Notes: a model not told the origin generated them from the sequence alone. 64,000 nucleotides of DNA from Candidatus Falkowbacteria bacterium (GCA_016214745.1 JACRNW010000001.1:67150-131149), one strand, 5' to 3'. Shown: positions 23,583-64,000, counted from the first letter of the stretch. Translations and numbers: made by a program.

Positions 23583-23960
23583 TTATTTACGGCCCTTAAA
23601 TTTCAAAATACTTGACCCCAAAAGATTTGCAATTTCCGTAACTTCGACCAATAACTTATTGATTGCGACCCTGTCTCCCTTACCGCTGTCGCGAAGTAAT
23701 GCCAACCAATATTTTGTTTCATTGGCAGATTTTAACGCGATATTTATAAAATTGGTGAAATCTTTTTTAGATCCACAGGCCTGTGCTTCAATAATATTTG
23801 CTCCAATGCTCGTTGCGCTACGAAGCATTTGTCTAACTATTACTTGGACGGAAAAATCCTTCTTATCAAGTTGATCTATAAATCGAATAATAGCCAAAGA
23901 AAACCTATAAACTTTTTCTTTTAGAAAAGTTTTATATTCTTTATTGTCCATAACTTTCAA
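23583..23960 (-). CDS. four-helix-bundle protein (23S rRNA intervening-sequence protein family, PF05635)
   Basis: Family-typical FSLAIIRFIDQL...RQMLRSATSIGANIIEAQAC...ALKSANETKYWLALL. Confidence 0.7.
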   Translation of the reverse strand: MKVMDNKEYKTFLKEKVYRFSLAIIRFIDQLDKKDFSVQVIVRQMLRSATSIGANIIEAQACGSKKDFTNFINIALKSANETKYWLALLRDSGKGDRVAINKLLVEVTEIANLLGSSILKFKGRK

Positions 23961-24692: not shown

Positions 24693-24750
24693 GGGAGTCC
24701 TGCCTTTAGGCAGAGACTGGAGTTTGTCTCGCCCTAAAGGGCGGTCTCCG
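24693..24750. repeat. REP-like hairpin pair (types A and B) flanking the RAYT gene
   Basis: GGAGTCCTGCCTTTAGGCAGAGAC and GTCTCGCCCTAAAGGGCGGTCTCC. Each folds as a GC stem with a TTTA/TAAA loop. Type B is roughly the reverse complement of type A. Confidence 0.6.
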
Positions 24751-25285
24751 GTTCGTTAGTTATAAAATCAACAATCGGATATAATTCAAAACACGAGTCA
24801 AACCACTCTTCTCCTTTTATTTTACTCCAACTTTTCGCGCTTGAAAAGGGATAACCAAAAACGCCGACCAAATTTTTACAAAACCCATGTTTTATTGGAT
24901 TTTGGTGAATGTAATTAAAATGTTTCCAAAAATCCGCTTCGTCGCGGATTGAATGGTCAAAATATTGATACCAGATTTTACGGCCTTTCTCATTTTCCGA
25001 TTTATTTAATTCAAAAGAGCTTTTGCCGTTAATGAAGTTAATAAATTTAGATAAATTTTCTCCGTTAAAAATTTTAAACAACAAATGGAAATGATTATCT
25101 AACAACACCCAGGCGTATAAATGAATCTCAAATTTTCGGAGTCCTGCCTTTAGGCAGAGACAAAATAATTTCTTTTTAGAATCCATGTCAAAATATGGTT
25201 TCCGGTCCACAGTTCTCGCGGTAATAGAATAAATTGTGTTGTCGAAAAAAATATGTGGCGGATGGTGATGTTGCGAGTGAAGCAT
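24734..25285 (-). CDS. REP-associated tyrosine transposase (RAYT; IS200/IS605 Y1-transposase-like)
   Basis: IHLYAWVLLDNHFHLLF is the HuH motif. 183 aa, flanked by REP hairpins. Confidence 0.68.
   Translation of the reverse strand: MLHSQHHHPPHIFFDNTIYSITARTVDRKPYFDMDSKKKLFCLCLKAGLRKFEIHLYAWVLLDNHFHLLFKIFNGENLSKFINFINGKSSFELNKSENEKGRKIWYQYFDHSIRDEADFWKHFNYIHQNPIKHGFCKNLVGVFGYPFSSAKSWSKIKGEEWFDSCFELYPIVDFITNEPETAL
25139..25162. repeat. REP type-A copy lying inside the RAYT coding sequence (in frame, encodes LFCLCLKAGL)
   Basis: The 24-nt ggagtcctgcctttaggcagagac is identical to 24694-24717. Confidence 0.6.
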
Positions 25286-45892: not shown

Positions 45893-45915
45893 GGTTTTTA
45901 ATTTTAATATTAAAT

Positions 45916-45940
45916 TATTTTGGTGGAGATGGCGGGAATT
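45916..45940. repeat. 25-nt direct duplicate of the tmRNA 3' end (tattttggtggagatggcgggaatt)
   Basis: Identical to 46081-46105. Lies ~165 bp downstream of the intact tmRNA 3' end. Confidence 0.7.
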
Positions 45941-46085
45941 TCACTGCTCGCTCACTTCGTTCACTGCGCTTTAAAACTCTGCGGTTTTAATATTTCCGCG
46001 AACGGAAACCTTACGGTTTCCGACCCTTCCCTGGTTCAATTCCCTATCTCAGATAACAAACTATTTTTTAATTTCTAATTTATTT

Positions 46086-46469
46086 TGGTGGAGATGGCGG
46101 GAATTGAACCCGCGTCTAGAAGTCTTCGACAAAACGAATCTACAAGTTTAGCTAAATTAAATTTTTAAAACACAAGGTATAAATTTAGCAAAATCCTTGT
46201 GCCCGAGGCCTATTAATTTTCAAAAATTTCTCTAAGCCAAAGAAATTTTCTATCTCGGTTATGACACCGGGACCCGCCTACCGAGAGTCGGCGGCCGATG
46301 TGCCGCGGCTAGTTAAGCCGTGGCAGGAGCAAAGCTCGGAACGCGAAAAGCGCTCTTTACCTTGTTAAATAAGTTTGCACTTATTGATTTTGCCAAAGTT
46401 TTGCGAGATTGTGGCAATACTCGACTTGCTCATTTTGTAAAGAACTCCTATCGAGGCCTGTCATCCCCA
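46086..46469 (-). ncRNA. ssrA: tmRNA (transfer-messenger RNA)
   Basis: 3' end ...GACGCGGGTTCAATTCCCGCCATCTCCACCA (T-arm plus acceptor with encoded CCA). A candidate 5' end GGGGATGACAGGCCTCGATAGG pairs with the 3' acceptor strand. Directly follows smpB. About 384 nt. I could not resolve the tag reading frame. Confidence 0.6.
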
Positions 46470-52265: not shown

Positions 52266-53090
52266 ATGACGAAGACCTTCGCGACGATGTTCGTGTTCGC
52301 GATGCTCTGCGTCCCGGCGATCGCCGAGGCGCAGCAGCAACTGGCCGATGGCGAGGCGCGTGCGCTCGTTTGCGGACCCGGAGAAATCCAGGTCTGCACC
52401 GAGACGCAGGCCGACGGCTCGGCTCCCCGGGTCATGTACCTGAGGGGAAGCCCGGTCATCGACTGCGTAGTTCGTTCCGAGACCGGAATCCAGCTCGAAT
52501 GTGTGAAATGGGAAGACGCCTGCAAGCGGGAATCCTGCGACAGGCGCGGCGGAAACTGGCACTGGGATGAGAGCTCGTGTCACTGCGACTACGAACGGCC
52601 GAGGGAAAGCCCTCCGCCGTCCGCGCCGCCAGCTCAGCCTCCGGGCCCGACGACGCCTCCGGTTCAACCCGGCCCGACGCCGACCTGCCCGGACTGCAAC
52701 GTGAGCCTCACGGTCTGTCCGAACGAGGAGATCGCGAGACTCGCGAACGAGCTTGCGCCTCTGGCGCAGGTCGCTCCCGAGACCTGGATCGTCCGGTCCG
52801 ACACGGATGAACTGAGGACGCGAGTCCTCTACATCCGCGATCGGGCGGCGGTGTGCGGCGAAGATAGAATCTTCGTCGACGCCGAGCGAGTACTGGCGGC
52901 AATGACGCCGCCGGAACCGAGTACGCTCCCATCGGGACCGCCGATGTCGAGCTACGAGGACGAGGAGAACTTCTGCACCAATTCGTTCGGCGGCGTACTG
53001 GTGTGCATCGTGCTGCCGACCGTGGCGGCCGGTGCCGCCATCTTCCTCGGTGTCTGGTTTGGCACCGAGTGGGAAGCGACCCAGGAGTAG
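52266..53090 (+). CDS. secreted Cys-containing Pro-rich protein with a C-terminal TM anchor
   Basis: GGAAGGAG RBS. Signal peptide MTKTFATMFVFAMLCVPAIAEA. PPPSAPPAQPPGPTTPPVQPGPTP linker. C-terminal TM helix. Confidence 0.55.
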   Translation: MTKTFATMFVFAMLCVPAIAEAQQQLADGEARALVCGPGEIQVCTETQADGSAPRVMYLRGSPVIDCVVRSETGIQLECVKWEDACKRESCDRRGGNWHWDESSCHCDYERPRESPPPSAPPAQPPGPTTPPVQPGPTPTCPDCNVSLTVCPNEEIARLANELAPLAQVAPETWIVRSDTDELRTRVLYIRDRAAVCGEDRIFVDAERVLAAMTPPEPSTLPSGPPMSSYEDEENFCTNSFGGVLVCIVLPTVAAGAAIFLGVWFGTEWEATQE

Positions 53091-53172
53091 TGTTCGTCAA
53101 CCCGGGGTCGGCGAGGCGGAAGCCCGTCGACCCCACAGAAGCTTCTGCCCCGAGAGGGCAGGGAGGGATGAG

Positions 53173-54183
53173 ATGAAGAACGTGAACCTGTTCGGGCTGT
53201 TCGTGTGCGTGATGGTGCTGGCGTCCTGTCAGGACGTCCAGCTCCCCGATCCGATCCACGTGTGTGAGGACAGCAACAACGACGACGTTTGCGACGGCGA
53301 CCAGGACGGCGATTCCGTCCCCTGGCAGTACGACAACTGCCCGCGGGCCGACAACCCCGACCAGGCCGACTGCGACGGCGACGGGATCGGCGACGCCTGC
53401 GACGACTTCGACAACCGGGATGCCGGCGCCGATGCGGACGCGGATGCGGATGCGGATGCGGATGCGGACGACTACGAGGGCGACGAGCCCGGCGAGTGTA
53501 CGGACGACGCGGACAACGACCGCGATGGTCGCTTCGACTGCGACGACCCGGGCTGCGTGAGCGATCCGGCGTGCGTCGCGGCTCCGTTCTGCGGCGATCA
53601 CGCCTGCAACGACAGCGAGACCTGCGCGAGCTGCCCGGCCGACTGCGGCATCTGCTCGGCAACCTGCGGCGACTGGGTATGCAACGGTTCCGAGACGTGC
53701 GCGACCTGCGCTCACGACTGCGGCACCTGCCCGGCGCCGATCTGCGGTGACGGCATGTGCAACGGCACCGAAACCTGCGAGACGTGCGCGTCCGACTGCA
53801 CCGGTTGCGCCGGCGACATCTTCGTCACGATCCGCGTGACCTCGTCTGACGCCTACCCCGCCGAAATTCATGTCTACTTCGCCGCTGATCCCCGGGATGT
53901 GGATGGCACCGACTCGGGCATGGCTCCCTACCAGACCAGTTTGACCCAGGCTCAGGCCTGCGGCCGAGTGGAAGGGGTGGAGGTCAGCGCCCGTCAGTTC
54001 TCGACGGCCGACCGCCCGTGGTACGGAACGCTCGGGATCCTAGGTCGTCTGACGATCCAGGTGAACGGCGTCGCCTACCCGGATGCGGCTGCTGGTCGTG
54101 CGGCTCTGCCGCTGATCGACCAGCCGTGGGGCGACCCCAACATCCATATCTCCCGGGCAGTTCTCCACTGCCCCGGTTCGTAG
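53173..54183 (+). CDS. lipoprotein with thrombospondin type-3 Ca-binding repeats and four CGDxxCNGxETCxxCxxDCGxC Cys-rich repeats
   Basis: Start MKNVNLFGLFVCVMVLASC (LASC lipobox). DGDQDGDSVPWQYDNCPRADNPDQADCDGDGIGDACD is a TSP3 repeat. Contains a (DA)n tract. Confidence 0.62.
   Translation: MKNVNLFGLFVCVMVLASCQDVQLPDPIHVCEDSNNDDVCDGDQDGDSVPWQYDNCPRADNPDQADCDGDGIGDACDDFDNRDAGADADADADADADADDYEGDEPGECTDDADNDRDGRFDCDDPGCVSDPACVAAPFCGDHACNDSETCASCPADCGICSATCGDWVCNGSETCATCAHDCGTCPAPICGDGMCNGTETCETCASDCTGCAGDIFVTIRVTSSDAYPAEIHVYFAADPRDVDGTDSGMAPYQTSLTQAQACGRVEGVEVSARQFSTADRPWYGTLGILGRLTIQVNGVAYPDAAAGRAALPLIDQPWGDPNIHISRAVLHCPGS
53431..53472. repeat. hexanucleotide microsatellite (GATGCG/GACGCG)x7 encoding (DA)n
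   Basis: gatgcggacgcggatgcggatgcggatgcggatgcggacgac. Confidence 0.85.
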
Positions 54184-54295
54184 ACCAACCAACAACTTAC
54201 CTGTTTAGTCCCTTGTCCCGACGCAAGTCGGAACAATAACAGGCAAGTCCAACAACCACAGACGCGACCTAGGGCGGTTGCGACTGCTTCGACAA

Positions 54296-54333
54296 GGCCA
54301 GCTTTCCTCCGGATTGCTGGCCTTCTTTTTTTA
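54296..54333 (+). terminator. rho-independent terminator
   Basis: GGCCAGCtttcctccggattGCTGGCC then TTCTTTTTTTATT. Confidence 0.6.
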
Positions 54334-54452
54334 TTATCAAGCGAGTGAGACCCCGGCAAGGCGGGACGAGCGAGCGCAGATAACACGGAGTATTTAAAAG
54401 TAATATTTTTAATTTAATCTCGTTTTAATACAAACTGGCCAAAACCAGTGTT

Positions 54453-54494
54453 TTGTCACACAACCTTGACAAATCCGGCATTCCGTTGTAATCT
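54453..54494 (+). promoter_or_regulatory. sigma-70-type promoter (TTGACA-17-TAATCT) overlapping the palindrome TTGTCAcacaaccTTGACAA
   Basis: -35 at 54466-54471. A second hairpin CTGGccaaaaCCAG sits just upstream. Confidence 0.45.
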
Positions 54495-54592
54495 ATAATG
54501 TTAGTTCATTGAACAACCCTTGCCGCAAGGCGAGGTAAAAATATAGTAAGTAGTTCACCTAAACTAAACATGCCGTCAAGGAGGGAAACAAG

Positions 54593-56311
54593 ATGGCAGA
54601 GAAGAAGAGTGGTGGCCTGCACTCTCCGATCGACGGCCGGCTAATCGCCGGGCGTTACAAGGTCGTAGATCCCGAACCTATCGGCCGGGGCGGCATGGGT
54701 CTCGTCTATCGCGGTTTCGACATCCGCACGAAGAGATCCGTTGCCATCAAGATTCTGCACGAGCAGTTCCACGGTATGCCCGACGTGGTTGCTCGGTTCC
54801 GCACGGAAACCGATGCGGTGAACCGTGTCGGCCACGAAGGCATTGTTGTCATCCTGGACTGTGCCCAGCCGGAAGAAACTCCGGTCTTCTTCGTCATGGA
54901 GTACCTGGACGGGAAAACGCTCGCCCAAGTGCTCGACGAGAATGGCCAGAGAGGCAAGCCGCTTCACGTCCAGCACATCCGCTACATCGGCTTGAAGCTT
55001 CTCGAGACGCTGGAAGCGGTCCACGAAAGCGGAATTATCCATCGCGACCTGAAGCCGGAAAACGTCTTCATCCTCGGGCTGCTAAGCAAGCGATATCGCG
55101 TCAAGCTTCTCGACTTCGGGATCGCGAAGTTCAAGGAAGCCGATCCCAAGCTGACTCAGGTGGGCACGATAGTGGGCACGCCCCTTTACATGTCACCTGA
55201 ACAGTGTCGGGGCCTCCCCGTCGACTACCGAACCGACCTCTACGCGATCGGCTGCATCCTCTACGAGATGGCAACCGGCCGACCGCCTTTCGTGGGCGAC
55301 CTGAGCGAAGTCCAACAGGGTCACCTCTCTCGTCTCCCGGAAGCTCCGAACGATCTGAACGGGGAAATCCCTCCGGCGCTCAACGCGGTCATCATGACGG
55401 CACTAGCTAAGGAACCGGACAACCGATTCCGCGACGCCGAAACCATGCGCGAAGCGCTCGAAGACGCCGTCCCCGAGGACAAGATGTTCTGGCGGGACAG
55501 CCGGCCGCCTTCGCCGGTGAACGGCAGCAGGGTGCTCGCCACTCCGCCGCGCATTCCAACCGCGATGGAGGATCAGCCAACGTCAGAGCGGCTCGACTCG
55601 TCTAAAACCCCGACTCGTCTGCTCGCTGACAAGCGGCCGCCGGCCGGGATCGCCTTGGCGAAAACCATGACTCCGGCTGACCTGAAACGGGCAGTTGATG
55701 AGGAGACGGCGCACCAGTTCGCCAAGAACTTCGGCGTCTGGATCCTGAAGCCCTCGAGTCGGGCGGCAGTGATCGCGATCGGCAGTACCCTCCTCATCCT
55801 CACCATCGTGTTCGTTCTTCTCGCGGCTTACCCGCCCAACACCGGCAAGCGCGCAAGAACGGCCGACGCTGGCGTCGAGGTCAGCACGACGGCGGTTGTC
55901 GTTTCCGAGAAGGAAACTCCTCCGCAGCCGAGCGGCCAGCCCGACGTCATCGTCCTGCCAGTTCCGGTTCCAGTTCCTCGGGACGACGCGACAACCGACG
56001 AGCCGAACGAAGTCGTCGAGATGGACGCAGTAGAAACTGCGGCCAACGCTGGCCCACCGGACGGCTACGCCGAACTACTCGCGGCGGCGGAACACGCCAG
56101 GAACTGGCGCACGGCCGTCGGAAGACTCGAGGAGGCAACAGAACTCTGGCCTGAAGGACCAGATGCCTGGAAAGAACTGGGCAACGTCTTCATGATGCAT
56201 GGGGAAATTCGGAAGGCCAGAGAAGCCTTCCGGACATGCCTCGACCTTCTGCCTCCGGACGCGTTCGTCCAGCGGGCACAAGTGGAGGGACGACTCAGGG
56301 GCCTGCAATAG
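54593..56311 (+). CDS. Hanks-type serine/threonine protein kinase with a C-terminal TM segment and a TPR-like tail
   Basis: GGAGGG RBS. GRGGMGLVYRG (P-loop), VAIK, HRDLKPENVFI, DFGIAKF, GTPLYMSPEQ. A TM helix near residue 400. Confidence 0.85.
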   Translation: MAEKKSGGLHSPIDGRLIAGRYKVVDPEPIGRGGMGLVYRGFDIRTKRSVAIKILHEQFHGMPDVVARFRTETDAVNRVGHEGIVVILDCAQPEETPVFFVMEYLDGKTLAQVLDENGQRGKPLHVQHIRYIGLKLLETLEAVHESGIIHRDLKPENVFILGLLSKRYRVKLLDFGIAKFKEADPKLTQVGTIVGTPLYMSPEQCRGLPVDYRTDLYAIGCILYEMATGRPPFVGDLSEVQQGHLSRLPEAPNDLNGEIPPALNAVIMTALAKEPDNRFRDAETMREALEDAVPEDKMFWRDSRPPSPVNGSRVLATPPRIPTAMEDQPTSERLDSSKTPTRLLADKRPPAGIALAKTMTPADLKRAVDEETAHQFAKNFGVWILKPSSRAAVIAIGSTLLILTIVFVLLAAYPPNTGKRARTADAGVEVSTTAVVVSEKETPPQPSGQPDVIVLPVPVPVPRDDATTDEPNEVVEMDAVETAANAGPPDGYAELLAAAEHARNWRTAVGRLEEATELWPEGPDAWKELGNVFMMHGEIRKAREAFRTCLDLLPPDAFVQRAQVEGRLRGLQ

Positions 56312-56316
56312 GCCCT

Positions 56317-56368
56317 GGGGCAACCACGCAAGATGTCAAACATCAAGCGTGGCTGCCCCTCTTTTTTA
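56317..56368 (+). terminator. rho-independent terminator
   Basis: GGGGCAaccacgcaagatgtcaaacatcaagcgtggcTGCCCC then TCTTTTTTATTTT. Confidence 0.6.
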
Positions 56369-56383
56369 TTTTATAAAAAAACC

Positions 56384-56412
56384 TTGACAAAAAAATACTT
56401 TTGTGGTTAGAT
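56384..56412 (+). promoter_or_regulatory. putative promoter (CCTTGACA-17-TTAGAT)
   Basis: -35 TTGACA at 56384-56389. The -10 is weak. Confidence 0.35.
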
Positions 56413-56474
56413 ATAAAGTGCTCTAAATGGGCGCAAGGGGGAGGCACGGGGCCTCCCTTAGATTTTAGGAGGGA

Positions 56475-57563
56475 ATGGAGATGAGGTTCATCACCCTGAT
56501 CGTGGCGGTTCTTTTCGCCCAGAACGCGTTTGCCCAGACGTCGGAGTCGACCGAGCAGACGGAGCAGTCCGCTGCGCCGGTCATCCTCGGCGAAGCCGGC
56601 AACGCGGCTCTCACGAGCTGCCTCGAAGCGGACGACGGGACCCAGTGCTGCACCGACTACGGCGACTGCGTGCAGAATTTGGGAGACAACTCCGAGCAGT
56701 GCGCTGCGGTCGCCCGACTGTGCGGGCACCAGGATCTCGACGCCGCCATGCGGGAAGGCTGCCAGCAGCGGAACGCGATCGTACAGGGCAGCGAATGCGC
56801 CTGCGCCGCGGGCTTGAGCTGGAACAACGAAAGCGACAAGGTTTGCTGCACAGCAAACCCCGCCACCTACGAACGCCGGCGAAACGCCTGCGAGCATTCC
56901 GGCGGAACCTACCACTGCAACAGCCGGGGCGGATGGTGCGGCTGCCCACTCGGCATGAGCCACCCGATCGAAGAGGATGGCGATGTCGACTACTCCTCCT
57001 GCACCGGCGAAGCGGTGAACCGCGAACGGCTCCAGGCGATGCGAGACAACATCGCGACTCTTACTGCCGAGGTCGAGGAAGCCGGACAACAGATCGCCGC
57101 CCTCCAAGCCGAGCGTGACGCCCTTCGAGCGCAGCTCGACCAGACTCTCAGTCAGCTGGCCGAGCTGGACAACCTCGAGGACACGGTCGGCGAGATGGAA
57201 CAACGGCTCGCCGAGATGGATGCCGAACTCTCGTTCTTGCGTCACCTGCGCGACCAGTACGAGGAATTCATCGCTCGGCAGGCGCAGACGATCGCCGATC
57301 TTGGCGGAATTCCTCCTCTCCCTCCGGGCATTCCGGAAGAGGATGAACCCCTCCCGGGAACAGCGGCGGCGGTCGCGGAAGCGGCAGGCGGAAGCCGGCC
57401 CGGACCGATGGAGCCACTACCCCCTCCCGAAGAGGAAGAGGGCAACTGGTGCTCCGAAAACGGCTGGGCATGCGCCGGTATCATCATCGGCGCAGCAGCC
57501 GCATTGGCCGGGGCAACCGTCGGGATCGTGGAGGCGACCCGCGACATTCAGGTCACTCAGTAG
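56475..57563 (+). CDS. secreted Cys-rich protein with a long coiled coil and a C-terminal TM anchor
   Basis: Signal peptide MEMRFITLIVAVLFAQNAFA. 16 Cys in the N-terminal domain. Heptad-like region LQAMRDNIATLTAEVEEAGQQIAALQAERDALRAQLDQ... C-terminal GIIIGAAAALAGATVGIV. Confidence 0.55.
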   Translation: MEMRFITLIVAVLFAQNAFAQTSESTEQTEQSAAPVILGEAGNAALTSCLEADDGTQCCTDYGDCVQNLGDNSEQCAAVARLCGHQDLDAAMREGCQQRNAIVQGSECACAAGLSWNNESDKVCCTANPATYERRRNACEHSGGTYHCNSRGGWCGCPLGMSHPIEEDGDVDYSSCTGEAVNRERLQAMRDNIATLTAEVEEAGQQIAALQAERDALRAQLDQTLSQLAELDNLEDTVGEMEQRLAEMDAELSFLRHLRDQYEEFIARQAQTIADLGGIPPLPPGIPEEDEPLPGTAAAVAEAAGGSRPGPMEPLPPPEEEEGNWCSENGWACAGIIIGAAAALAGATVGIVEATRDIQVTQ

Positions 57564-57592
57564 TTCTCGGGATTTCCTCCACCCGAGGACCA

Positions 57593-57641
57593 GGCCGACG
57601 TTTTGAGACAATCGTGTCTCGGACGTCGGCCTTTTTTTATC
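57593..57641 (+). terminator. rho-independent terminator
   Basis: GGCCGACGttttgagacaatcgtgtctcggaCGTCGGCC then TTTTTTTT. Confidence 0.65.
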
Positions 57642-57642
57642 T

Positions 57643-57684
57643 GTCAACTCCCCTTGACAAAACTTAAAAAATATGGTATATTTA
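57643..57684 (+). promoter_or_regulatory. sigma-70-type promoter (TTGACA-17-TATATT) overlapping the palindrome CTGTCAActccccTTGACAa
   Basis: -35 at 57656-57661, -10 at 57679-57684. The element closely matches the 51691 element. Confidence 0.5.
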
Positions 57685-57877
57685 CTTGTTCTGAAACGAA
57701 TGGAAAACAGTATCTACATAAACAAAATTGGATCCTGTAGTAGTTTGGTTTGATACCTGGGTTGCCTCCTCCTCAACCTCTTGGTTTTCAAATCAAACTA
57801 CTCAAGGACCCAACAAAATTGGTCCAAGCAACTCGGGATGGGTCCCGGGTTGAGAGAGTTTGGAAAGGAAAGCGCTG

Positions 57878-58984
57878 ATGGCGAATGGCAACAAGGTCTC
57901 AAGCTCCCTCCAGATTACCGGCCTGAAGCCCGACATCACGGAAGAGAAAATCCGTAGGGCTGTCGGCGAAATCGTCGGAGTGGGGCAGGACGGGATCTCC
58001 AACGTGGATATCCGGCGACGCGAAGATGGCAGGCCCGAGGAGCGAGGCGCGAATGCCGTCGTCGCCTTCAAGGATGTCGCAACGGCGACGGTGGCGAAGG
58101 CGGGACTTGGCGCAGGCAAGCTGTGCAGAATCCCCGACCTGAATCCCGACCGCGAGATCATGGCCGACTTCTACTTTCCTCCGCGGCCGCGCGACGAGAG
58201 GCCGCCGGCCACACCCCCACCCGCCGCACCCTCGATCGATCCGAACCAGCTTACGGCCATTGTGGCCGAACTCGAGGCCAGGCTCAAGGCCGACGCCGGA
58301 TTTCTGGCGAAGGTCAGGGGCAAGGACGGCGTAGCGCCGACGAAGGACGAGATCGTCGCGGCCCTCCGGTCCTTCCTGGTCACCGACCTCAAGGCTGCTC
58401 TGGCCCCGGTGCTGAAGGTTGACCTCAAGAACGACCCGACCTTCCAGGACCTGATCAAGGGCACTCCCGGCAAGGACGGCCCCGCGAAGGATGAAGTCAT
58501 CGCGGCGCTCAAGGCCGACGCCTCCTTCAAGGCGGAAGTCAAGGGCGAGAAGGGCGATGACGCACCCCGGTGGCCTCACTGGGTCTTGGTGGTTTTTGCC
58601 ACCTTGGCGTTCATCGTCATGCTCGGCCACCTCGTCTGCGGAAGCAGCGGCGACCAGGGTCCGCAGGGCGTCCAGGGCCAGGTCGGTCCCCAAGGTCCGC
58701 AAGGGCCCAAGGGCCCGATCGGACCGCGTGGTCCCGAAGGCTCCCAGGGTCCGCAGGGCGAACCCGGAGCCGCGGCGACCACAACGGTCGCACCGGCGCC
58801 GAGCGCGGAGCCGCCCGTCGAACCGGCGGCCACGGCGCCGCCCAGCCAGGCAACGCCGACGGGACGGCCCAACATCACGGAAGTGGATGGGCGCGAGCTC
58901 ATCCGCCACCAGCTGGACGACGTGTCCGTCCTATTCCGTGAGATCGATCGGAGGACCCGGCAACTGGAGGAAGCGCGCCAGTAG
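57878..58984 (+). CDS. membrane-anchored collagen-like (13 x G-X-Y) protein with GKDG...DEIVAAL repeats
   Basis: ATG at 57878 (MANGNK). TM helix [59 protein letters not shown]. Repeated GKDG(V/P)A(P/K)(T)KDE(I/V)(V/I)AAL(R/K) units resemble phage tail-fibre-like repeats. Confidence 0.58.
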
Positions 58985-59111: not shown

Positions 59112-59504
59112 CTAAATTCCCAACTCTTTCTTTAATTTTTCATAATCATTTTTTGCTTTCTCAAATTCTTCTTCCACTGCGGCCCGATTTCCACCTTTTA
59201 AAAATCCTAAAAACCGACTTAAGAGACTATTGTATTCTTTCAAATTTTTTTCCGCTTTGGCTAGCCGGTATTTGGCAAATTCCAATTTTGCTTTTTGCTC
59301 GTCAGTTAAAACGGAAATAACTGGCGCGGCGTTCGCCTCTACAACCGGTTTAATTCCCGCGGCGGACAAACGGTCTTCCACGGCTTTAATTAGTCGGCTA
59401 GACACTTGATCCAAAAATATTTTTATATTTGGATCCCGGATAACGGTTTGCGCAGTTTGTAAAATTTGATCGGCCATAAAGGGTCTATTCTTTGTTGACG
59501 GCAC
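59112..59504 (-). CDS. hypothetical protein (low GC)
   Basis: 130 aa. No motif recognised. Confidence 0.4.
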   Translation of the reverse strand: MPSTKNRPFMADQILQTAQTVIRDPNIKIFLDQVSSRLIKAVEDRLSAAGIKPVVEANAAPVISVLTDEQKAKLEFAKYRLAKAEKNLKEYNSLLSRFLGFLKGGNRAAVEEEFEKAKNDYEKLKKELGI

Positions 59505-59527
59505 TCGCTCGTCAATAAAAAATCAAA

Positions 59528-62032
59528 TTAAATTCCGTATTTTTTTCTTTCTCTTTGTTCAACGGATTTTATTATCGGCTCAAGTTCTTCTCTGGCCTTC
59601 GCTTCTAACTCCCCCCTGCTCTTTCCTTTATAATCCGGACTTTCTCCAAACTTTTTTACCAACTCGGAAAAAATTCTTCTTCGCTCGTCCGCCAAGGTTT
59701 GCCTGATTATCCGTTCAGTCTCTCTTTTTTTGGCCTCTTCGGGTGTTCTTAATTTTTCTACGGACGGTGCGGCAACCTTAACTTCTTTTTTTGCCGGAGG
59801 TATGATCTCCTCTTTTTTCTCCGCCGATTTTGGGGGTAAAATTATTTCATCCGGCTCAAAAAATCCAAAATAAAATTCTCCACCGCCGTATTTTTGCACG
59901 TCTCTTCCGCCCGGCTTTTTCAAAGTAAGATAAAGTTTCTGGCCGGCTTCAAAATTTTTAGGGACGCTGCGAACAATAACTTTTTTATTATCTGGCGTTA
60001 TAGCCCCCCAATCTCCCTGGGGCGATTTTTCGACAGCCACCCTTATCCGCCGCGGCTCATTATCCAAAAACTTTTTTAATTCCGTTTCGGACCCAGGTTT
60101 AAAATCCGGCGCTAATCTGCCCAATAAATCTCCCAGCGTAACCGTCAATTTTTCCCCGCCCGCTAATTTCAAAAAGAGACTCTTGCGGATTAATCTTCCT
60201 TGCGGCAAACCGGCAAAAATTTTTTCGTCAAGGGTTCCTTTATTTAGGGCTACAAAAAAATTACGATTTTCCGGCGTATAACGAATTACTCCGTCATAGC
60301 CAAGACTCGCCGCGGCCCATTGGCCTTCGCCGCCGATTTTATTTTGCGTATCTACTAAAAATTTCTTGCCGTCTTTAGTGACGACAAACCAATTTTTAGC
60401 TATCAAATCACTGACATCTTCCATCGTTTGCTCTATTACCTTGCGCCGTTCGGCCACATGGTCAACAACTTCTCCGTCTTTCTTTTTATAAATTAAACCA
60501 AATCTTCTCAGGTCTTTTTCATCCAAAATATCCGTAACATCCTTGCCTGATTCGGCAAAACGCAGAAGGGTATCCAAGGTCACAAAAGGAGACTTTAAAA
60601 ATCCCAACATCATCCGGTCGGAGTCTTCAAAATATTTTTCCATATCCGGAAAGCTGAAGTTATCCGACTGCGTTACCCATTCTACGACTTTTTCATATTT
60701 TTCTTGTTCTTTTTCATCTTTAAATTTTAGCAAACCCAACTCCGTTAAAACATTATAAACATTTTTCATAGCCGAAGTGCCACGATCCGAATATGGACCG
60801 TGGTGGTCCATAACCGTAGTAATCTCACTTTTTCGCTCCCCAGTTTTGGGATCTACGGTCTCAGTAGACTCAACCACCAAACCATCTTCATTGCCAGAAT
60901 CAATCGTAACCTGACCCTGCATTTTTTCTCCCGGTGTAAGAAAACCTACTTTACTGATGTCTAATCCTGCCTTTCCCAAAAGCGCAACGGCACATTTACC
61001 ATCCAAATCGGAGTAACGCAGTAAACCTATTTGCTTTTTCTCCTTATCGTATCCAAATCTGCCATGGGTAAACAATTCCCGTGTAGCTAAAAATTTTTTG
61101 GCTGATTCGGCGACCAATTCCCTCTCCGCTCTTTCCCTCGCCTCTTCCGGCTCAATTTTTTCTTTGGCTAAAATTTCTGCCGTTCTTTTTTCCGCGTCTT
61201 CCTCTTTAATTCCCTCCCCGAGAATACTCCTAAATTCTTCCATCTGCACCTTCTGCAATCTTTCTAAGATTGGTTTGCCTTCGCCGTAAGGAAGGCTTAA
61301 AAAGTATTCCCCGAGTCCCAAAACCATTTTATCAATTTCTTCATCGCTAAATTTTTCCGGTGATTTTTTCCGGATTATCTCGTCTAAAAGTTTTTTATGC
61401 GCTTCCTTTTCTTCCGATGAAAATGAAGAAAGAAAATACTGAATATTTTTTTTGGTCAATTCACCAAGCGCGTATTCTCTTAAAATTTTTCTATACCATT
61501 CTTCCGCTGTTTGCTCTGATTTCGCACCAGTCGAGATAGTAATTCCCGGCCTTCTTACAACCTCCACATTTTTTTTCTCATCAACCCATCGCCCTTCTTT
61601 CGGTTCTCTAATTCTTTGAGTCGTAGTTCTTGTACGGGCTATTTTTGCCGGTTCTTGTTTAAGATCTGCTATATCCGCTTTTACCTCCCCCTCTCGAATA
61701 GCTTCAGCGAGTCTTTGATAAGCTTCGTATTCCTCCGCCGAAGGGAAAGTTTTTAAAAAATTAACCAGGGCTTCTTTACTTAGAATACCCTGGTCATATT
61801 TAGTTCGCAAATTAGAATATGTGGCCATTTTTTTGGCCTCTTTTTGTCTTTTCTCTTCTTCCCATTTTTCACCGCCCGCCTCTGCCAATCCCCCTTTCCA
61901 ATCTCTCGATTTTTGGGGGGATTTTTCTGACTTTTTTTCTTCTCGTTCAGCCGCTCGCCTTTCTGCGTCAAGATGAACCAATTTTCCAGATTCGGTTTCT
62001 TCTGCGGCATCTCTTCTGCGAGATTTAGCCAT
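59528..62032 (-). CDS. large Lys/Glu-rich hypothetical protein with a possible DHH-family phosphoesterase core
   Basis: RYSDLDGKCAVALLGKAG (DHH motif I-like) and VMDHHGPYSDRG (DHH motif III) in the middle of 834 aa. Weak. Confidence 0.35.
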   Translation of the reverse strand: MAKSRRRDAAEETESGKLVHLDAERRAAEREEKKSEKSPQKSRDWKGGLAEAGGEKWEEEKRQKEAKKMATYSNLRTKYDQGILSKEALVNFLKTFPSAEEYEAYQRLAEAIREGEVKADIADLKQEPAKIARTRTTTQRIREPKEGRWVDEKKNVEVVRRPGITISTGAKSEQTAEEWYRKILREYALGELTKKNIQYFLSSFSSEEKEAHKKLLDEIIRKKSPEKFSDEEIDKMVLGLGEYFLSLPYGEGKPILERLQKVQMEEFRSILGEGIKEEDAEKRTAEILAKEKIEPEEARERAERELVAESAKKFLATRELFTHGRFGYDKEKKQIGLLRYSDLDGKCAVALLGKAGLDISKVGFLTPGEKMQGQVTIDSGNEDGLVVESTETVDPKTGERKSEITTVMDHHGPYSDRGTSAMKNVYNVLTELGLLKFKDEKEQEKYEKVVEWVTQSDNFSFPDMEKYFEDSDRMMLGFLKSPFVTLDTLLRFAESGKDVTDILDEKDLRRFGLIYKKKDGEVVDHVAERRKVIEQTMEDVSDLIAKNWFVVTKDGKKFLVDTQNKIGGEGQWAAASLGYDGVIRYTPENRNFFVALNKGTLDEKIFAGLPQGRLIRKSLFLKLAGGEKLTVTLGDLLGRLAPDFKPGSETELKKFLDNEPRRIRVAVEKSPQGDWGAITPDNKKVIVRSVPKNFEAGQKLYLTLKKPGGRDVQKYGGGEFYFGFFEPDEIILPPKSAEKKEEIIPPAKKEVKVAAPSVEKLRTPEEAKKRETERIIRQTLADERRRIFSELVKKFGESPDYKGKSRGELEAKAREELEPIIKSVEQRERKKYGI

Positions 62033-62042
62033 ATCTTTAAAA

Positions 62043-62062
62043 ATTTAATGGCGGGTCCGAAG
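62043..62062. repeat. 20-nt direct duplicate of the tRNA-Asp 3' end (cgggtccgaagggatttgaa)
   Basis: Identical to 62181-62200. Sits 138 bp from the intact tRNA end. Confidence 0.7.
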
Positions 62063-62180
62063 GGATTTGAAGACTCCTCGGTGCAATCCTCGGCGCCGCA
62101 AAAAGGATTTAAGGGAGAGTATTCTCTCCAATCTGCTCAATTTGACAAACCAATCGCAAAAGCGATTGCTTTGTCAAAAC

Positions 62181-62256
62181 GGGTCCGAAGGGATTTGAAC
62201 CCTCGATCTTCTCCGTGACAGGGAGACGTGTTAGACCGGGCTACACCACGGACCCA
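62181..62256 (-). tRNA. tRNA-Asp (anticodon GTC)
   Basis: GGGTCCGTGGTGTAGCCCGGTCTAACACGTCTCCCTGTCACGGAGAAGATCGAGGGTTCAAATCCCTTCGGACCCG. 7-bp acceptor, GTGT/ACAC D stem, TCTCC/GGAGA anticodon stem with loop CTGTCAC, T-arm GAGGG-TTCAAAT-CCCTT. CCA is not encoded. Confidence 0.85.
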
Positions 62257-62431
62257 TCTTTATATAAAAAATCAAAAATAAAATATTCTTGATTTATATA
62301 ACTTTACCAGTAAAAATTTTATCTGTCAATGTTTTTTTGATATAAAATGACCCCGGCCTTGGAGCATCTTTGCTCTTCCAGCTCGGGGTCTGGCAGCTAA
62401 ACTGCCGATATCTATGTTCTTCCGCCCTGGA

Positions 62432-62638
62432 CTAGGCGGCTCGTCTTGCCGCAGCGCGGTTGACGTACTGCCGTCCCCGACGCCTCCTTCGGGGCTCCTG
62501 CTTCATGTCCGCGTGGAGGCCGTTGTTCACGACCGCCTCCATGAGCCTCAACGCCCGCCGTTGACGCTTGCAGAAATGCTCCTCCACGATGTTCCCCTCG
62601 TTGTCCCGTACCGTCACCTTCCACTGCGGTCTCGCCAT
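62432..62638 (-). CDS. small basic ORF in high-GC mini-island 3 (hypothetical)
   Basis: MARPQWKVTVRDNEGNIVEEHFCKRQRRALRLMEAVVNNGLHADMKQEPRRRRRGRQY... About 300 bp of ~65 % GC DNA directly 5' of tRNA-Asp. Confidence 0.3.
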   Translation of the reverse strand: MARPQWKVTVRDNEGNIVEEHFCKRQRRALRLMEAVVNNGLHADMKQEPRRRRRGRQYVNRAAARRAA

Positions 62639-62757
62639 TCCTCGATCTCCTTTGGCCTTCCCTCGGCCGGTTTGGGCCCACCCCTCGTGAATGAGCCATA
62701 AACAAAAAGCGACCAATTTCAATCTTAACGTAATATTTGGTCGCCGTCAAGTCTATT

Positions 62758-64000
62758 TTATTTGCTTTTCTTTAATTTTTTCTCTGCCTCTAAAACTCTT
62801 AAAGTCGTCTTCAAAACTGAATCCGGATTTAGAGAAATACTGTCAATTTTATTTTTTACCAAAAATTCCGCAAAGTCGGGAAAATCGGACGGCGCCTGAC
62901 CGCAGATGCCGATCTTTACCTTTTTCTGACGGGCAGTTCTTATAACAGCCTTGATCGCCCGCTTCACGGCTTCATTACGTTCATCAAAAAGACGGCTGAC
63001 CAAACCAGAATCGCGATCCACGCCCAAAATCAGCTGAGTTAAGTCGTTTGAACCGATGCTAAAGCCATCAAAAATTTCGGAAAATTTATCCGCCAAAATT
63101 ACGTTGGACGGTATTTCCACCATCATATAAATTTTTAATGATTTTAATTTCGGTGATTTGCCCAAGCCCGATTCTCTAATCATGGAAACTACTCTTTTGC
63201 CTTCCGGAACCGTGCGGCAAAACGGCACCATCACAATAAGATTATCCAGACCAAAAACTTTGCGAACTTTTTTTATTGCTTCGCATTCCAGAGCGAAAGC
63301 TTTCTCATAATTTTTATCATAATAGCGGGAAGCGCCGCGCCAGCCGAGCATAGGATTCGCTTCTTCGGGCTCAAATCCCGCGCCGCCAATAAGACCGGCG
63401 TATTCATTTGATTTAAAATCTGAAAAACGGACAATCACGGGCTTTGGATAAAAGGCGGCGGCAATTCTTCCCACGCCTTCCGCTAATTTATCCACAAAAA
63501 TTTTGTCTTGTCTTTATACCCGTATGTTAATTTTTCAATTTGATTTTTAACTTTCAACTTTAAATTTTTATTTTTCAATAATGCGAGCGGGTGAATTTTT
63601 ATATAGTTGGAAATAATAAATTCTTCGCGAGCCAAGCCAACTCCATCGTTCGGGATGAATGAAAAATCAAACGCCTGTTCCGGTTCACCAACATTCATCA
63701 TAATTTTCGTTTTCGGCCGCTCTATTTTTTCCAAATTAATTCTTTTAATTTTTACCGGCAGAAGACCGCGATAAATTTTTCCTTCTTCGCCTTCGGCGCA
63801 ACTTACCGTAACTCCTTCGCCATTTTTTAAAATTTTCCGCGCTCCGACCGCTCCAACGACGCAGGGGATTCCGAGTTCTCTTGAAACTATCGCGGCGTGG
63901 CAGGTTCGGCCGCCTGATTCAGTAATGACGGCGCTTGCTTTTTTCATAATCGGCACCCAATCCGGATCAGTCATTTCCGCGACCAAAACCTCGCCGTCTC
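62758..64000 (-). pseudogene. ppsA: phosphoenolpyruvate synthase (PEP-utilising mobile domain plus C-terminal TIM barrel), partial at the window end, frame-broken by a 44-nt insertion
   Basis: GGRTCHAAIVSRELGIPCVVG (phosphohistidine domain) and ...[26 protein letters not shown]...GSNDLTQL (PEP-binding barrel). The frame shift sits at 63452-63495. Confidence 0.7.

Follow-up and report, generated by a model that had tools for sequence, protein, structure and literature searches.

A 128-bp insertion at the T-loop of tRNA-Asp in Candidatus Falkowbacteria and a family of small non-coding units in other Patescibacteria

A 64,000-nucleotide stretch of DNA from Candidatus Falkowbacteria bacterium (GCA_016214745.1, JACRNW010000001.1:67150-131149; hereafter the window, with positions counted from its first letter) carries a tRNA-Asp (GTC) gene on the minus strand, the last 20 nucleotides (nt) of which recur a short distance downstream. 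Comparison with related loci shows a 128-bp insertion into this gene, by which the ancestral 20 nt and CCA appear to have been pushed downstream. The non-coding unit that arrived has homologs at tRNA-Asp in other Patescibacteria. With a probability of roughly 0.6, we regard it as a miniature or decayed integrative element resembling a cis-mobilizable element (CIME), which would depend on a recombinase supplied in trans or on transformation and homologous recombination. An earlier interpretation of the window, made from the sequence alone (the sequence-only reading), had noticed the repeat and had taken the whole 51.7-62.2 kb region for a possible composite integrated element at tRNA-Asp.

The duplicated 3' end of tRNA-Asp and empty sites in relatives

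The tRNA-Asp gene was called at 62179-62256 on the minus strand by ARAGORN and at 62180-62255 by Rfam (64.9 bits), in agreement with the sequence-only reading, which had placed it at 62181-62256. The 20-mer CGGGTCCGAAGGGATTTGAA (plus strand) occurs in exact copies at 62052-62071 and 62180-62199, and these were the only two matches in the window with up to 3 mismatches (0.00 expected, 100 shuffles). The 20-nt duplicate described earlier is thus an exact repeat, but its lower copy had been put at 62043-62062, 9 nt from its actual position. Identity between the copies ends at 20 nt on both sides, and the spacing between them is 108 bp (62072-62179). On the tRNA strand the repeat reads TTCAAATCCCTTCGGACCCG; it starts at base 1 of the T-loop, runs through the 3' strand of the T-stem and the 3' acceptor strand, and ends at the discriminator.

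Relatives were gathered by a scan of genome collections with the 834-aa protein encoded beside the tRNA, followed by homolog look-ups, which gave the loci L001, L002, L003, L018/L019 and L020. In all of these an ortholog of the 834-aa protein (about 46-64% identity) lies directly 3' of tRNA-Asp, and a single core copy is present at the 3' side of the tRNA (...TTCAAATCCCTTCGGACCCG-CCA-TTAA...ATGGC), with the tRNA end ...GGACCCG-CCA abutting the next gene. Directly after the working tRNA of the window comes TTTTGACAAAG, and the string CCA-TTAAAT...ATGGCTAAA stands behind the lower copy instead; the sequence after that copy, CCATTAAAT...ATGGCTAAA, is what trails the tRNA in L001, L003, L018 and L020. 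Because the ancestral CCA and downstream flank lie behind the displaced copy, the upper copy is probably the one borne by the insert. The blastn breakpoints between the window and its relatives fell exactly at 62071 and 62180 and, together with the placement of the flank, they define a 128-bp insertion consisting of 108 unique bp and a CCA-less 20-nt tRNA end. This segment is absent, leaving an empty site, in L001, L002, L003, L005, L006 and L020. The main features are listed below.

62180-62255, minus strand: tRNA-Asp (GTC), working gene; no encoded CCA, TTTT directly 3'.
62180-62199, minus strand: putative replacement for the final 20 nt of the tRNA, brought by the insert (attL-side core); exact repeat.
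62072-62179, minus strand: 108-bp non-coding insert, the family A unit; homologous units in L007, L009 and L012, and partly in L004.
62049-62071, minus strand: putative displaced ancestral tRNA 3' fragment (attR-side core); 20 nt at 62052-62071 plus CCA at 62049-62051.
62301-62329, minus strand: tRNA-Asp sigma-70-type promoter, TTGACA-17-TAAAGT; conserved in L001, L003, L018 and L020.

The tRNA-Asp sequence is identical at 75-76 of 76 positions across all relatives, and its trailer is CCA at all empty sites and a CCA-less TTT(T/A/C) at all occupied ones. A regenerated tRNA accompanied by its displaced 3' fragment as a direct repeat, as expected of integration into a tRNA gene, was found here with 20 of 20 positions exact. 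The view that the repeat is an integration-type scar is borne out by the empty sites in relatives and by the ancestral CCA and flank behind the displaced copy. When an island integrates, the target gene is restored and a displaced fragment stays behind (PMC4383910), and the symmetric sublocations recognised as integration points include the T-loop (bioRxiv 10.1101/2020.11.02.365908). The boundary at the T-loop and the regenerated target have the classic layout of a tRNA gene entered by site-specific integration. The empty-site junction predicted from this geometry would read ...GGACCCGCCATTAAATTTTT, and that of a circle or tandem would read ...CACCGAGGAGTC + TTCAAATCCCTTCGGACCCG + TTTTGACAAAGC.

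Anatomy of the 108-bp unit

Three features of the unit are listed below.

62141-62178, minus strand: hairpin 1, 16 bp with a TTTT loop and one conserved internal mismatch; begins 2 nt past the discriminator.
62114-62129, minus strand: short hairpin 2, GGAGAG-AATA-CTCTCC, in the variable middle; a similar GGAGAGAATTCTCCCC is present in L009.
62072-62102, minus strand: conserved right end, TTTGCGGCGCCGAGGATTGCACCGAGGAGTC, with two CCGAGGA repeats; 78-96% identity among members.

Across the window, L012 and L007, 97.9% of cells in hairpin 1 are paired, and 5 of its 16 pairs show compensatory double changes (none in any slid register). At the same position L009 has a hairpin of unlike sequence. 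The window unit folds with a z-score of -4.6, and the whole-unit z-scores of the family range from -2.8 to -4.6. Identity in the variable middle is 38-67% among family members. Read from the sequence, the last CCGAGGA of the right end resembles the 5' strand of the T-stem (TCGAGGG in the tRNA), and the junction CCGAGGAG-TC-TTCAAAT-CCCTTCGG is an imperfect inverted repeat around the 7-nt T-loop. With its T-stem-like right end, the junction therefore has the layout of a recombinase core site.

No open reading frame (ORF) was found in the 108-bp unit, and no terminal inverted repeats, the ends TTTTGACAAAG... and ...CACCGAGGAGTC not being inverted repeats of each other. Compared with the first 56 nt of the tRNA, the unit scores no better than chance, as high a score being reached by 264 of 1000 shuffles; it has no similarity to the tmRNA insert described below or to the rest of the window. 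An Rfam search of 61900-62800 at E<=10 gave nothing credible, and only the tRNA and the tmRNA passed thresholds.

Several assignments were tried and rejected. Hairpin 1 is not a canonical terminator, since no U-tract follows it. A weak promoter match in the insert (TTGTCA-16-GAGAAT) is not conserved in other family members. RNAalifold predicts a tRNA-like minihelix at the right end, but thermodynamically it is no different from shuffles. The unit is not a miniature inverted-repeat transposable element (MITE), as it has no terminal inverted repeats, its duplication is 20 nt of tRNA, and it is a single copy found only at tRNA-Asp. Nor does it belong to the repetitive extragenic palindromes and their paired forms (REP/REPIN), as the 64 kb of the window contain a single copy, the 377 kb of related DNA add none at other places, and a Y1_Tnp gene that is present shows no link to the unit. 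That gene (24734-25285, minus strand; 183 aa, IS200-like domain) adjoins genes for a 23S rRNA-intervening-sequence-type protein and a TPR protein; these features (24734-25285 and 23583-23960, both minus strand) lie in a low-GC pocket amid genes of ~50% GC for large Big_1/invasin-like surface proteins.

Related units and other occupants at tRNA-Asp

A metagenome scan for the core preceded by a base other than G, which excludes true tRNAs, gave at least one contig, L004. It carries a related right end (...TTTGCACCGAGGAGCA) before an intact displaced core and CCA, with a DUF5663 gene downstream, unlike the context in the window; the L004 sequence extends only 20 nt into its insert. Homologs of this DUF5663 gene led to the tRNA-Asp sites of L005-L012, which are in the following states.

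L005 (413-kb contig) and L006: empty site.
L007: 108-bp unit with full-length homology to the window unit.
L012 and L009: homologous units with decayed displaced cores, TATGAATCTCTTCGGGCCTG and TTCAAATCCCTTCGCGCCG respectively.
L010/L011: insert of ~150 bp not related to the unit; it has three GC-rich hairpins, and its displaced core is decayed.
L008: tRNA, then TTTTGAC (the first 7 nt of the unit), then ancestral sequence; deletion-footprint-like.

A profile hidden Markov model of the family (nhmmer) matched only at tRNA-Asp sites in the 377 kb made up of the window and loci. Inserts homologous to that of the window, about 100-108 bp in length, are thus present at this site in four further genomes. 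The window, L004 and L007 have kept an intact displaced core, and in L012 and L009 it has decayed, a range that would be expected of events of different ages. Segment identities are mosaic. The window and L012 share 95% identity in hairpin 1, with tRNA-neighbour proteins that are only 38% identical; between L012 and L007 the figure for hairpin 1 is 73%, though these are the closer genome pair (the same DUF5663-bearing group). The right ends of the window and L007 are 96% identical. Such identities, incongruent with host relatedness, are signs of movement between lineages. In L007 the unit and a core copy are followed by 31 nt resembling the start of another left end, and then by ancestral sequence, an arrangement that looks like tandem accretion, of the kind described for CIMEs and integrative and mobilizable elements (IMEs) (PMC5704250).

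Two further arrangements were seen at this site. The ~150-bp insert at the tRNA-Asp 3' end in L010 (1383-1560, equal to L011 55-232) is unrelated to family A; two of its three hairpins are near-repeats, CCCCG(A/C)GATGAAC(T/G)CGGGG, and its displaced core reads GCAAATCCCGTACGACCCGCCA. In L018/L019 (9690-9990) the native tRNA-Asp promoter is followed by a pseudo-tRNA. This is identical to the tRNA over its first 29 nt, after which a GC hairpin, CCCCGCAGTACTGCGGGG, takes the place of the anticodon arm and is followed by AGATCGAGGG, with identity breaking at the T-loop; ~170 bp with a 41-aa ORF then precede a complete tRNA-Asp with CCA. The L018 arrangement is a 5'-side rearrangement, distinct from insertion of a unit and sharing the T-loop boundary. 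To judge from the unrelated insert of L010/L011, the footprint-like state of L008 and the rearrangement of L018, tRNA-Asp is a hot spot.

A parallel insertion at tmRNA

At the tmRNA of the same genome, where the sequence-only reading had reported the same scar pattern, a 26-nt exact repeat of the 3' end was found at 45915-45940 and 46080-46105.

46080-46105, minus strand: putative insert-borne 26-nt copy of the tmRNA 3' end (tmRNA gene 46086-46468).
45941-46079, minus strand: 139-bp non-coding tmRNA insert; absent in L016 and L017, and unrelated in sequence to the tRNA-Asp insert.
45915-45940, minus strand: putative displaced ancestral 26-nt tmRNA 3' fragment; exact repeat.

The tmRNA site is empty in L016/L017 (10531-10960; SmpB 90% identical), where the next sequence is the one that stands after the displaced copy in the window. 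Set against these empty sites, the window carries an extra 165 bp, made up of the 26-nt repeat and 139 unique bp, and the earlier observation holds. The event at tmRNA is of the same kind as that at tRNA-Asp, with an unrelated insertion. In L014/L015 (SmpB 98% identical, roughly the same species) the tmRNA site reads ...CATCTCCA|TTGTCGCAAAAACG... and leads into a PDDEXK_3 gene; the L015 contig ends ~40 nt into the foreign DNA, and L014 (6616-7175) continues for ~540 bp, through the PDDEXK_3 gene. The L013 contig ends near the tmRNA 3' end. The site is thus polymorphic among close strains, which argues for ongoing recombination at these sites in the lineage.

The flanking region is native

The larger element of 51.7-62.2 kb was not upheld. 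The repeat brackets 108 bp only, an empty site was found for the 128-bp segment alone, and the 51.7-62 kb block and its genes are syntenic in relatives. A search for a third att copy near 51.7 kb, with relaxed matching, had been suggested; none with up to 5 mismatches was found in the window, and matches with 6 mismatches were at chance level, none of them near 51.7 kb. No integrase was detected in the window or in the Patescibacteria loci by Pfam on ~50 ORFs or by tblastn with XerD and lambda Int, and so the recombinase that a tRNA island or prophage would carry was not found within the element.

The description of the flanks was accurate as to composition. Below the tRNA lie two low-GC genes (GC 0.42 and 0.40) and then a GC-rich block at ~51.9-59.05 kb (GC 0.62-0.67), and a high-GC patch with a small basic ORF lies on the 5' side (62340-62700, GC 0.59-0.68; ORF 62432-62638). 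This DNA had been described as foreign in composition; its composition is indeed odd, but it is native and conserved in position. Related genomes with the same genes between the Wzz-like gene and tRNA-Asp, uniform in composition, had been named as the observation that would speak against the composite element. Relatives do have the same genes at the same positions, but their composition is not uniform, the odd composition being itself conserved.

59528-62032, minus strand: 834-aa conserved hypothetical gene, native, ancestral neighbour of tRNA-Asp; GC 0.42; 100% identical to HZB93_00655 of a Candidatus Falkowbacteria metagenome-assembled genome, which places the source lineage in the Patescibacteria (candidate phyla radiation, CPR).
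59112-59504: 130-aa gene, native and syntenic; GC 0.40.
62432-62638, minus strand: small basic GC-rich ORF, 68 aa, native; promoter 62722-62750, terminator 62350-62365.

The 834-aa ORF starts 19 bp below the displaced copy. In relatives the gene downstream of the tRNA starts 10-45 nt past it and is therefore probably co-transcribed. Products of the 834-aa, 130-aa and small GC-rich ORFs gave no match in Pfam, NCBIfam or PDB. The order 130-aa gene, collagen-like, coiled-coil, Ser/Thr kinase with TPR, two more GC-rich genes, Wzz and PDZ is the same in L018/L019 and, within the reach of the loci, in L001, L002 and L013.

GC-rich, fast-diverging genes

GC-rich genes occur in the window at 41.9-44.6 kb, 52266-58984 and 62432-62638, and in relatives at 5.2-12.1 kb of L001, 13.0-19.9 kb of L018, 0.4-4.8 kb of L013 and 18-20.3 kb of L005. 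They encode Cys-rich/TSP3/MopE-motif repeat proteins, a Ser/Thr kinase with TPR, coiled-coil and collagen-like proteins and the 68-aa basic protein, and they are positional orthologs in L001, L002, L013, L016 and L018; island 1 beside the tmRNA has its positional counterpart in L016 (GC 0.64). GC at third codon positions (GC3) is 0.74-0.83 in the window and 0.72-0.86 in L018, against 0.34-0.43 for neighbours. The intergenic spacers inside the GC-rich island have a GC of 0.41-0.46, TTGACA-type promoters and T-run terminators.

Homologs of the 68-aa ORF are present at the same position in 8 relatives (25-40% identity) and are GC-rich wherever measured (GC3 0.83 in the window, 0.77 in L018, 0.86 in L005). 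Its 5' leader (GGCTCAT.CCGAGGGATGGGCCAAGCGG...CCGCG) is conserved from promoter to ribosome-binding site in the window (62640-62720), L001 (1690-1760) and L003 (9359-9430); it might be a regulatory RNA element, and no Rfam match was found for it.

Synonymous (dS) and nonsynonymous (dN) divergence between the window and the close relative L013 was as follows.

Six flanking genes: dS 0.22-0.34, dN 0.012-0.047.
GC-rich island genes: dS 0.69-1.58, dN 0.40-0.57.

The GC-rich genes diverge 10-30 times faster than their neighbours with position conserved, and nucleotide identity between the window and L013 is 92-96% for the flanks but only 65-82% for the island. This pattern fits neither a recent foreign island nor ordinary native genes; alleles may have been replaced from a GC-rich gene pool, or mutation or conversion may be GC-biased locally. 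It points to an unrecognised mode of gene evolution in the lineage and may matter more than the scar itself.

Two other features of the region were recorded. At ~63480-63500 a T-run (T5) contains a -1 frameshift that interrupts the pyruvate phosphate dikinase (PPDK) gene, which is intact (794 aa) in L005, L018 and L020; the frameshift could be a homopolymer sequencing or assembly error or a real pseudogene. An intergenic repeat, ...TATCAAGCGAG(C/T)GAGA-(hairpin)-GAGCGAGCGCAGATAACACG(G/A)AGTAT, is present in several intergenic regions of the window (54330-54392; 59486-59513, inverted) and, between the small ORF and the tRNA-Asp promoter, in L002 (9740-9830) and L003 (9735-9800).

Proposed mechanism and alternatives

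We infer that a site-specific recombinase made the insertion. Recombination of the attachment-site (att) type, with crossover at the T-loop, would have put 128 bp of DNA into the 3' part of tRNA-Asp; the incoming DNA would have carried its own CCA-less version of the last 20 nt of the tRNA, which would now complete the working gene, and the original 20 nt with CCA would have been shifted 128 bp downstream. The plan of the unit, a long hairpin right after the tRNA end, a variable middle and a right end mimicking the T-stem, could then represent attL and attR arms with nothing between them, as in a very small CIME-like element. The unit encodes nothing and therefore needs a recombinase in trans, or else DNA uptake and homologous recombination, which would proceed through the invariant tRNA and the displaced core. 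Tyrosine integrases are known to produce att geometry of this kind. A serine recombinase in Dehalococcoides produces it as well (PMC3146451). The outcome in the window is that a CCA-encoding tRNA-Asp became CCA-less and that 128 nt with a stable hairpin lie between the tRNA and the co-oriented 834-aa gene.

Several observations weigh against this interpretation. Neither the window nor any of the Patescibacteria loci examined yielded a recombinase. Searches of IMG/VR with the displaced core, hairpin, right-end motif, tRNA end and tmRNA variants gave no parent or free attP among the matches listed, only chance matches inside coding sequences. BLAST searches of phages and plasmids for a parent element were empty or gave one chance match, and none was found among 20 related loci. 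A 128-bp double-stranded circle is a poor recombination substrate, which makes autonomous cycling doubtful. The complete family members number only four. The strict conservation of hairpin structure may point to a role at the RNA level or as single-stranded DNA that the integrase model does not require, and occupancy of the site would by itself also be compatible with an ancestral insertion and repeated precise loss.

A more far-reaching idea, to which we give tentative consideration only, is that the unit is a hitherto undescribed kind of mobile DNA, non-coding and made of att sequences alone (a structure-conserved hairpin and a T-stem mimic). It would pass as a unit between distantly related Patescibacteria, each time entering tRNA-Asp at the T-loop, and the tmRNA would have analogous units; each insertion would turn a CCA-encoding gene into a CCA-less one. 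It might be recognised as folded single-stranded DNA, as is integron attC, or might double as tRNA-trailer RNA. We think it improbable that the unit is instead an exapted RNA module, in which the hairpin would help to process, stabilise or terminate the 3' end of the CCA-less tRNA-Asp, and an acceptor/T-like minihelix, made by pairing of the right end and the displaced tRNA end, would keep a processing site before the 834-aa mRNA. The five compensatory pairs of the undisrupted hairpin fit such a role, as do a long-range helix predicted by RNAalifold (GCGG..CCGAGG with CCTTCGG..CCGC), the 'decayed' core changes of L012 and L009, which as read from the sequences keep or improve the long-range pairing, and the probable co-transcription of the downstream gene. 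However, the stability of the 3' module is no better than that of shuffles (z = -0.4 to -1.9), there is no U-tract behind the hairpin and hence no canonical terminator, no Rfam family matches, and six relatives do without the unit; with four sequences only, covariation in the long-range helix is anecdotal. A single ancient att-type event, spread afterwards by natural transformation and homologous recombination with the 76-nt tRNA and the 20-23-nt displaced core as anchors, and lost at times via the 20-nt repeats, would account for the near-identity of the tRNA (75-76/76 in all genomes), for mosaic segments that do not track host relatedness, for the lack of a recombinase in the window and loci searched, and for the fixed ~108-bp architecture, which is unlike that of independent deletion products. 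We nevertheless judge spread without a recombinase unlikely, as an anchor of 20 nt is about the shortest that RecA-type exchange can use, L009 and L012 with their decayed cores have lost that anchor, and unrelated inserts at the same nucleotide (L010; the tmRNA of the window and of L014) argue for ongoing site-specific activity.

The composite foreign island, of which the 20-nt repeat would be one att scar, draws on the contrast between the GC-rich block (0.62-0.67) and the backbone (about 0.41), and on genes that diverge far faster than the backbone and behave unlike core genes. It is nonetheless very unlikely, given that the repeat encloses 108 bp with no third copy, that the 834-aa and 130-aa genes are low in GC and syntenic in all relatives examined, that the GC-rich genes are positional orthologs with AT-rich host-type promoters, and that no integrase was found. 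An artefact can be set aside with still greater assurance. The source is a metagenome-assembled genome, and contigs of close relatives break at the tmRNA 3' end, as an assembly error might suggest; yet four assemblies, made independently in different studies, contain homologous units. If the repeat were instead what remains of a tandem tRNA copy, this would be at odds with the chance-level score of the 108 bp against the first 56 nt of the tRNA (264/1000) and with the sharp boundary of identity at the T-loop.

Relation to known elements

The proposed insertion of a miniature integrative element has an architecture already known from integration into tRNA genes. As in islands and prophages at tRNA and tmRNA genes (Islander-type), the target is regenerated by DNA of the element, a 3' fragment is displaced, the repeat starts in the T-loop, the element-side junction mimics the T-stem, and alternative occupants are found at one site within a lineage. 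Unlike them, the unit is 108 bp long and has no integrase, cargo or coding capacity, and the nearby GC-rich blocks lie outside it.

To our knowledge, no conjugative elements have been described at the tRNA-Asp site in Patescibacteria. The closest named category is the CIME, which keeps attL and attR without integration genes (PMC5704250). Both att copies are intact here, the interior is non-coding, there are no integration or transfer genes, and L007 has the look of tandem accretion. Described CIMEs come from identifiable integrative and conjugative elements (ICEs) or IMEs, however, and the present unit is ~0.1 kb long, has no known parent and is conserved as a unit across genomes.

In the ssrA islands of Dehalococcoides the repeat is 20 bp long, and every displaced ssrA repeat is preceded by a conserved motif of 15 bp (PMC3146451). 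They are alike in the 20-bp direct repeat (there of the tmRNA 3' end), in insertion at the T-loop, in the conserved motif before the displaced repeat and in tandem arrays with integrase-less members (PMC3146451). They differ in being kb-sized, with 16 described as having a serine-recombinase (DsiB) module and with rdhA genes collocated with the repeats, none of which is found here (PMC3146451).

With MITEs, REP/REPIN and integron attC sites the unit shares a length of ~100 bp, the absence of coding sequence and a structure-conserved hairpin with a conserved internal mismatch. It differs from them in having no terminal inverted repeats or short target-site duplication, in the 20-nt duplication of a tRNA end and in occurring as one copy per genome at one site. 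It further differs in the absence of an integron integrase or cassette context, and the unit has no link to the IS200-like gene at 24.7 kb. What sets the present unit apart is its size of ~0.1 kb, the absence of a known parent, and its conservation as a unit with covariation and signs of transfer; it is apparently an undescribed miniature form.

Implications

At this locus a tRNA-end repeat beside DNA of odd composition does not delimit a genomic island, and island callers based on GC or on tRNA fragments would therefore mis-annotate ~10 kb of native genes. In the streamlined Patescibacteria, the 3' ends of tRNA-Asp and tmRNA appear to be active recombination sites at which close strains differ in their occupants, those that persist being non-coding units of ~100-165 bp. 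If this is general, such units would be an easy sign that integrases act, or once acted, in a phylum whose mobile elements are poorly known, and they would change the maturation of an essential single-copy tRNA from an encoded to an added CCA.

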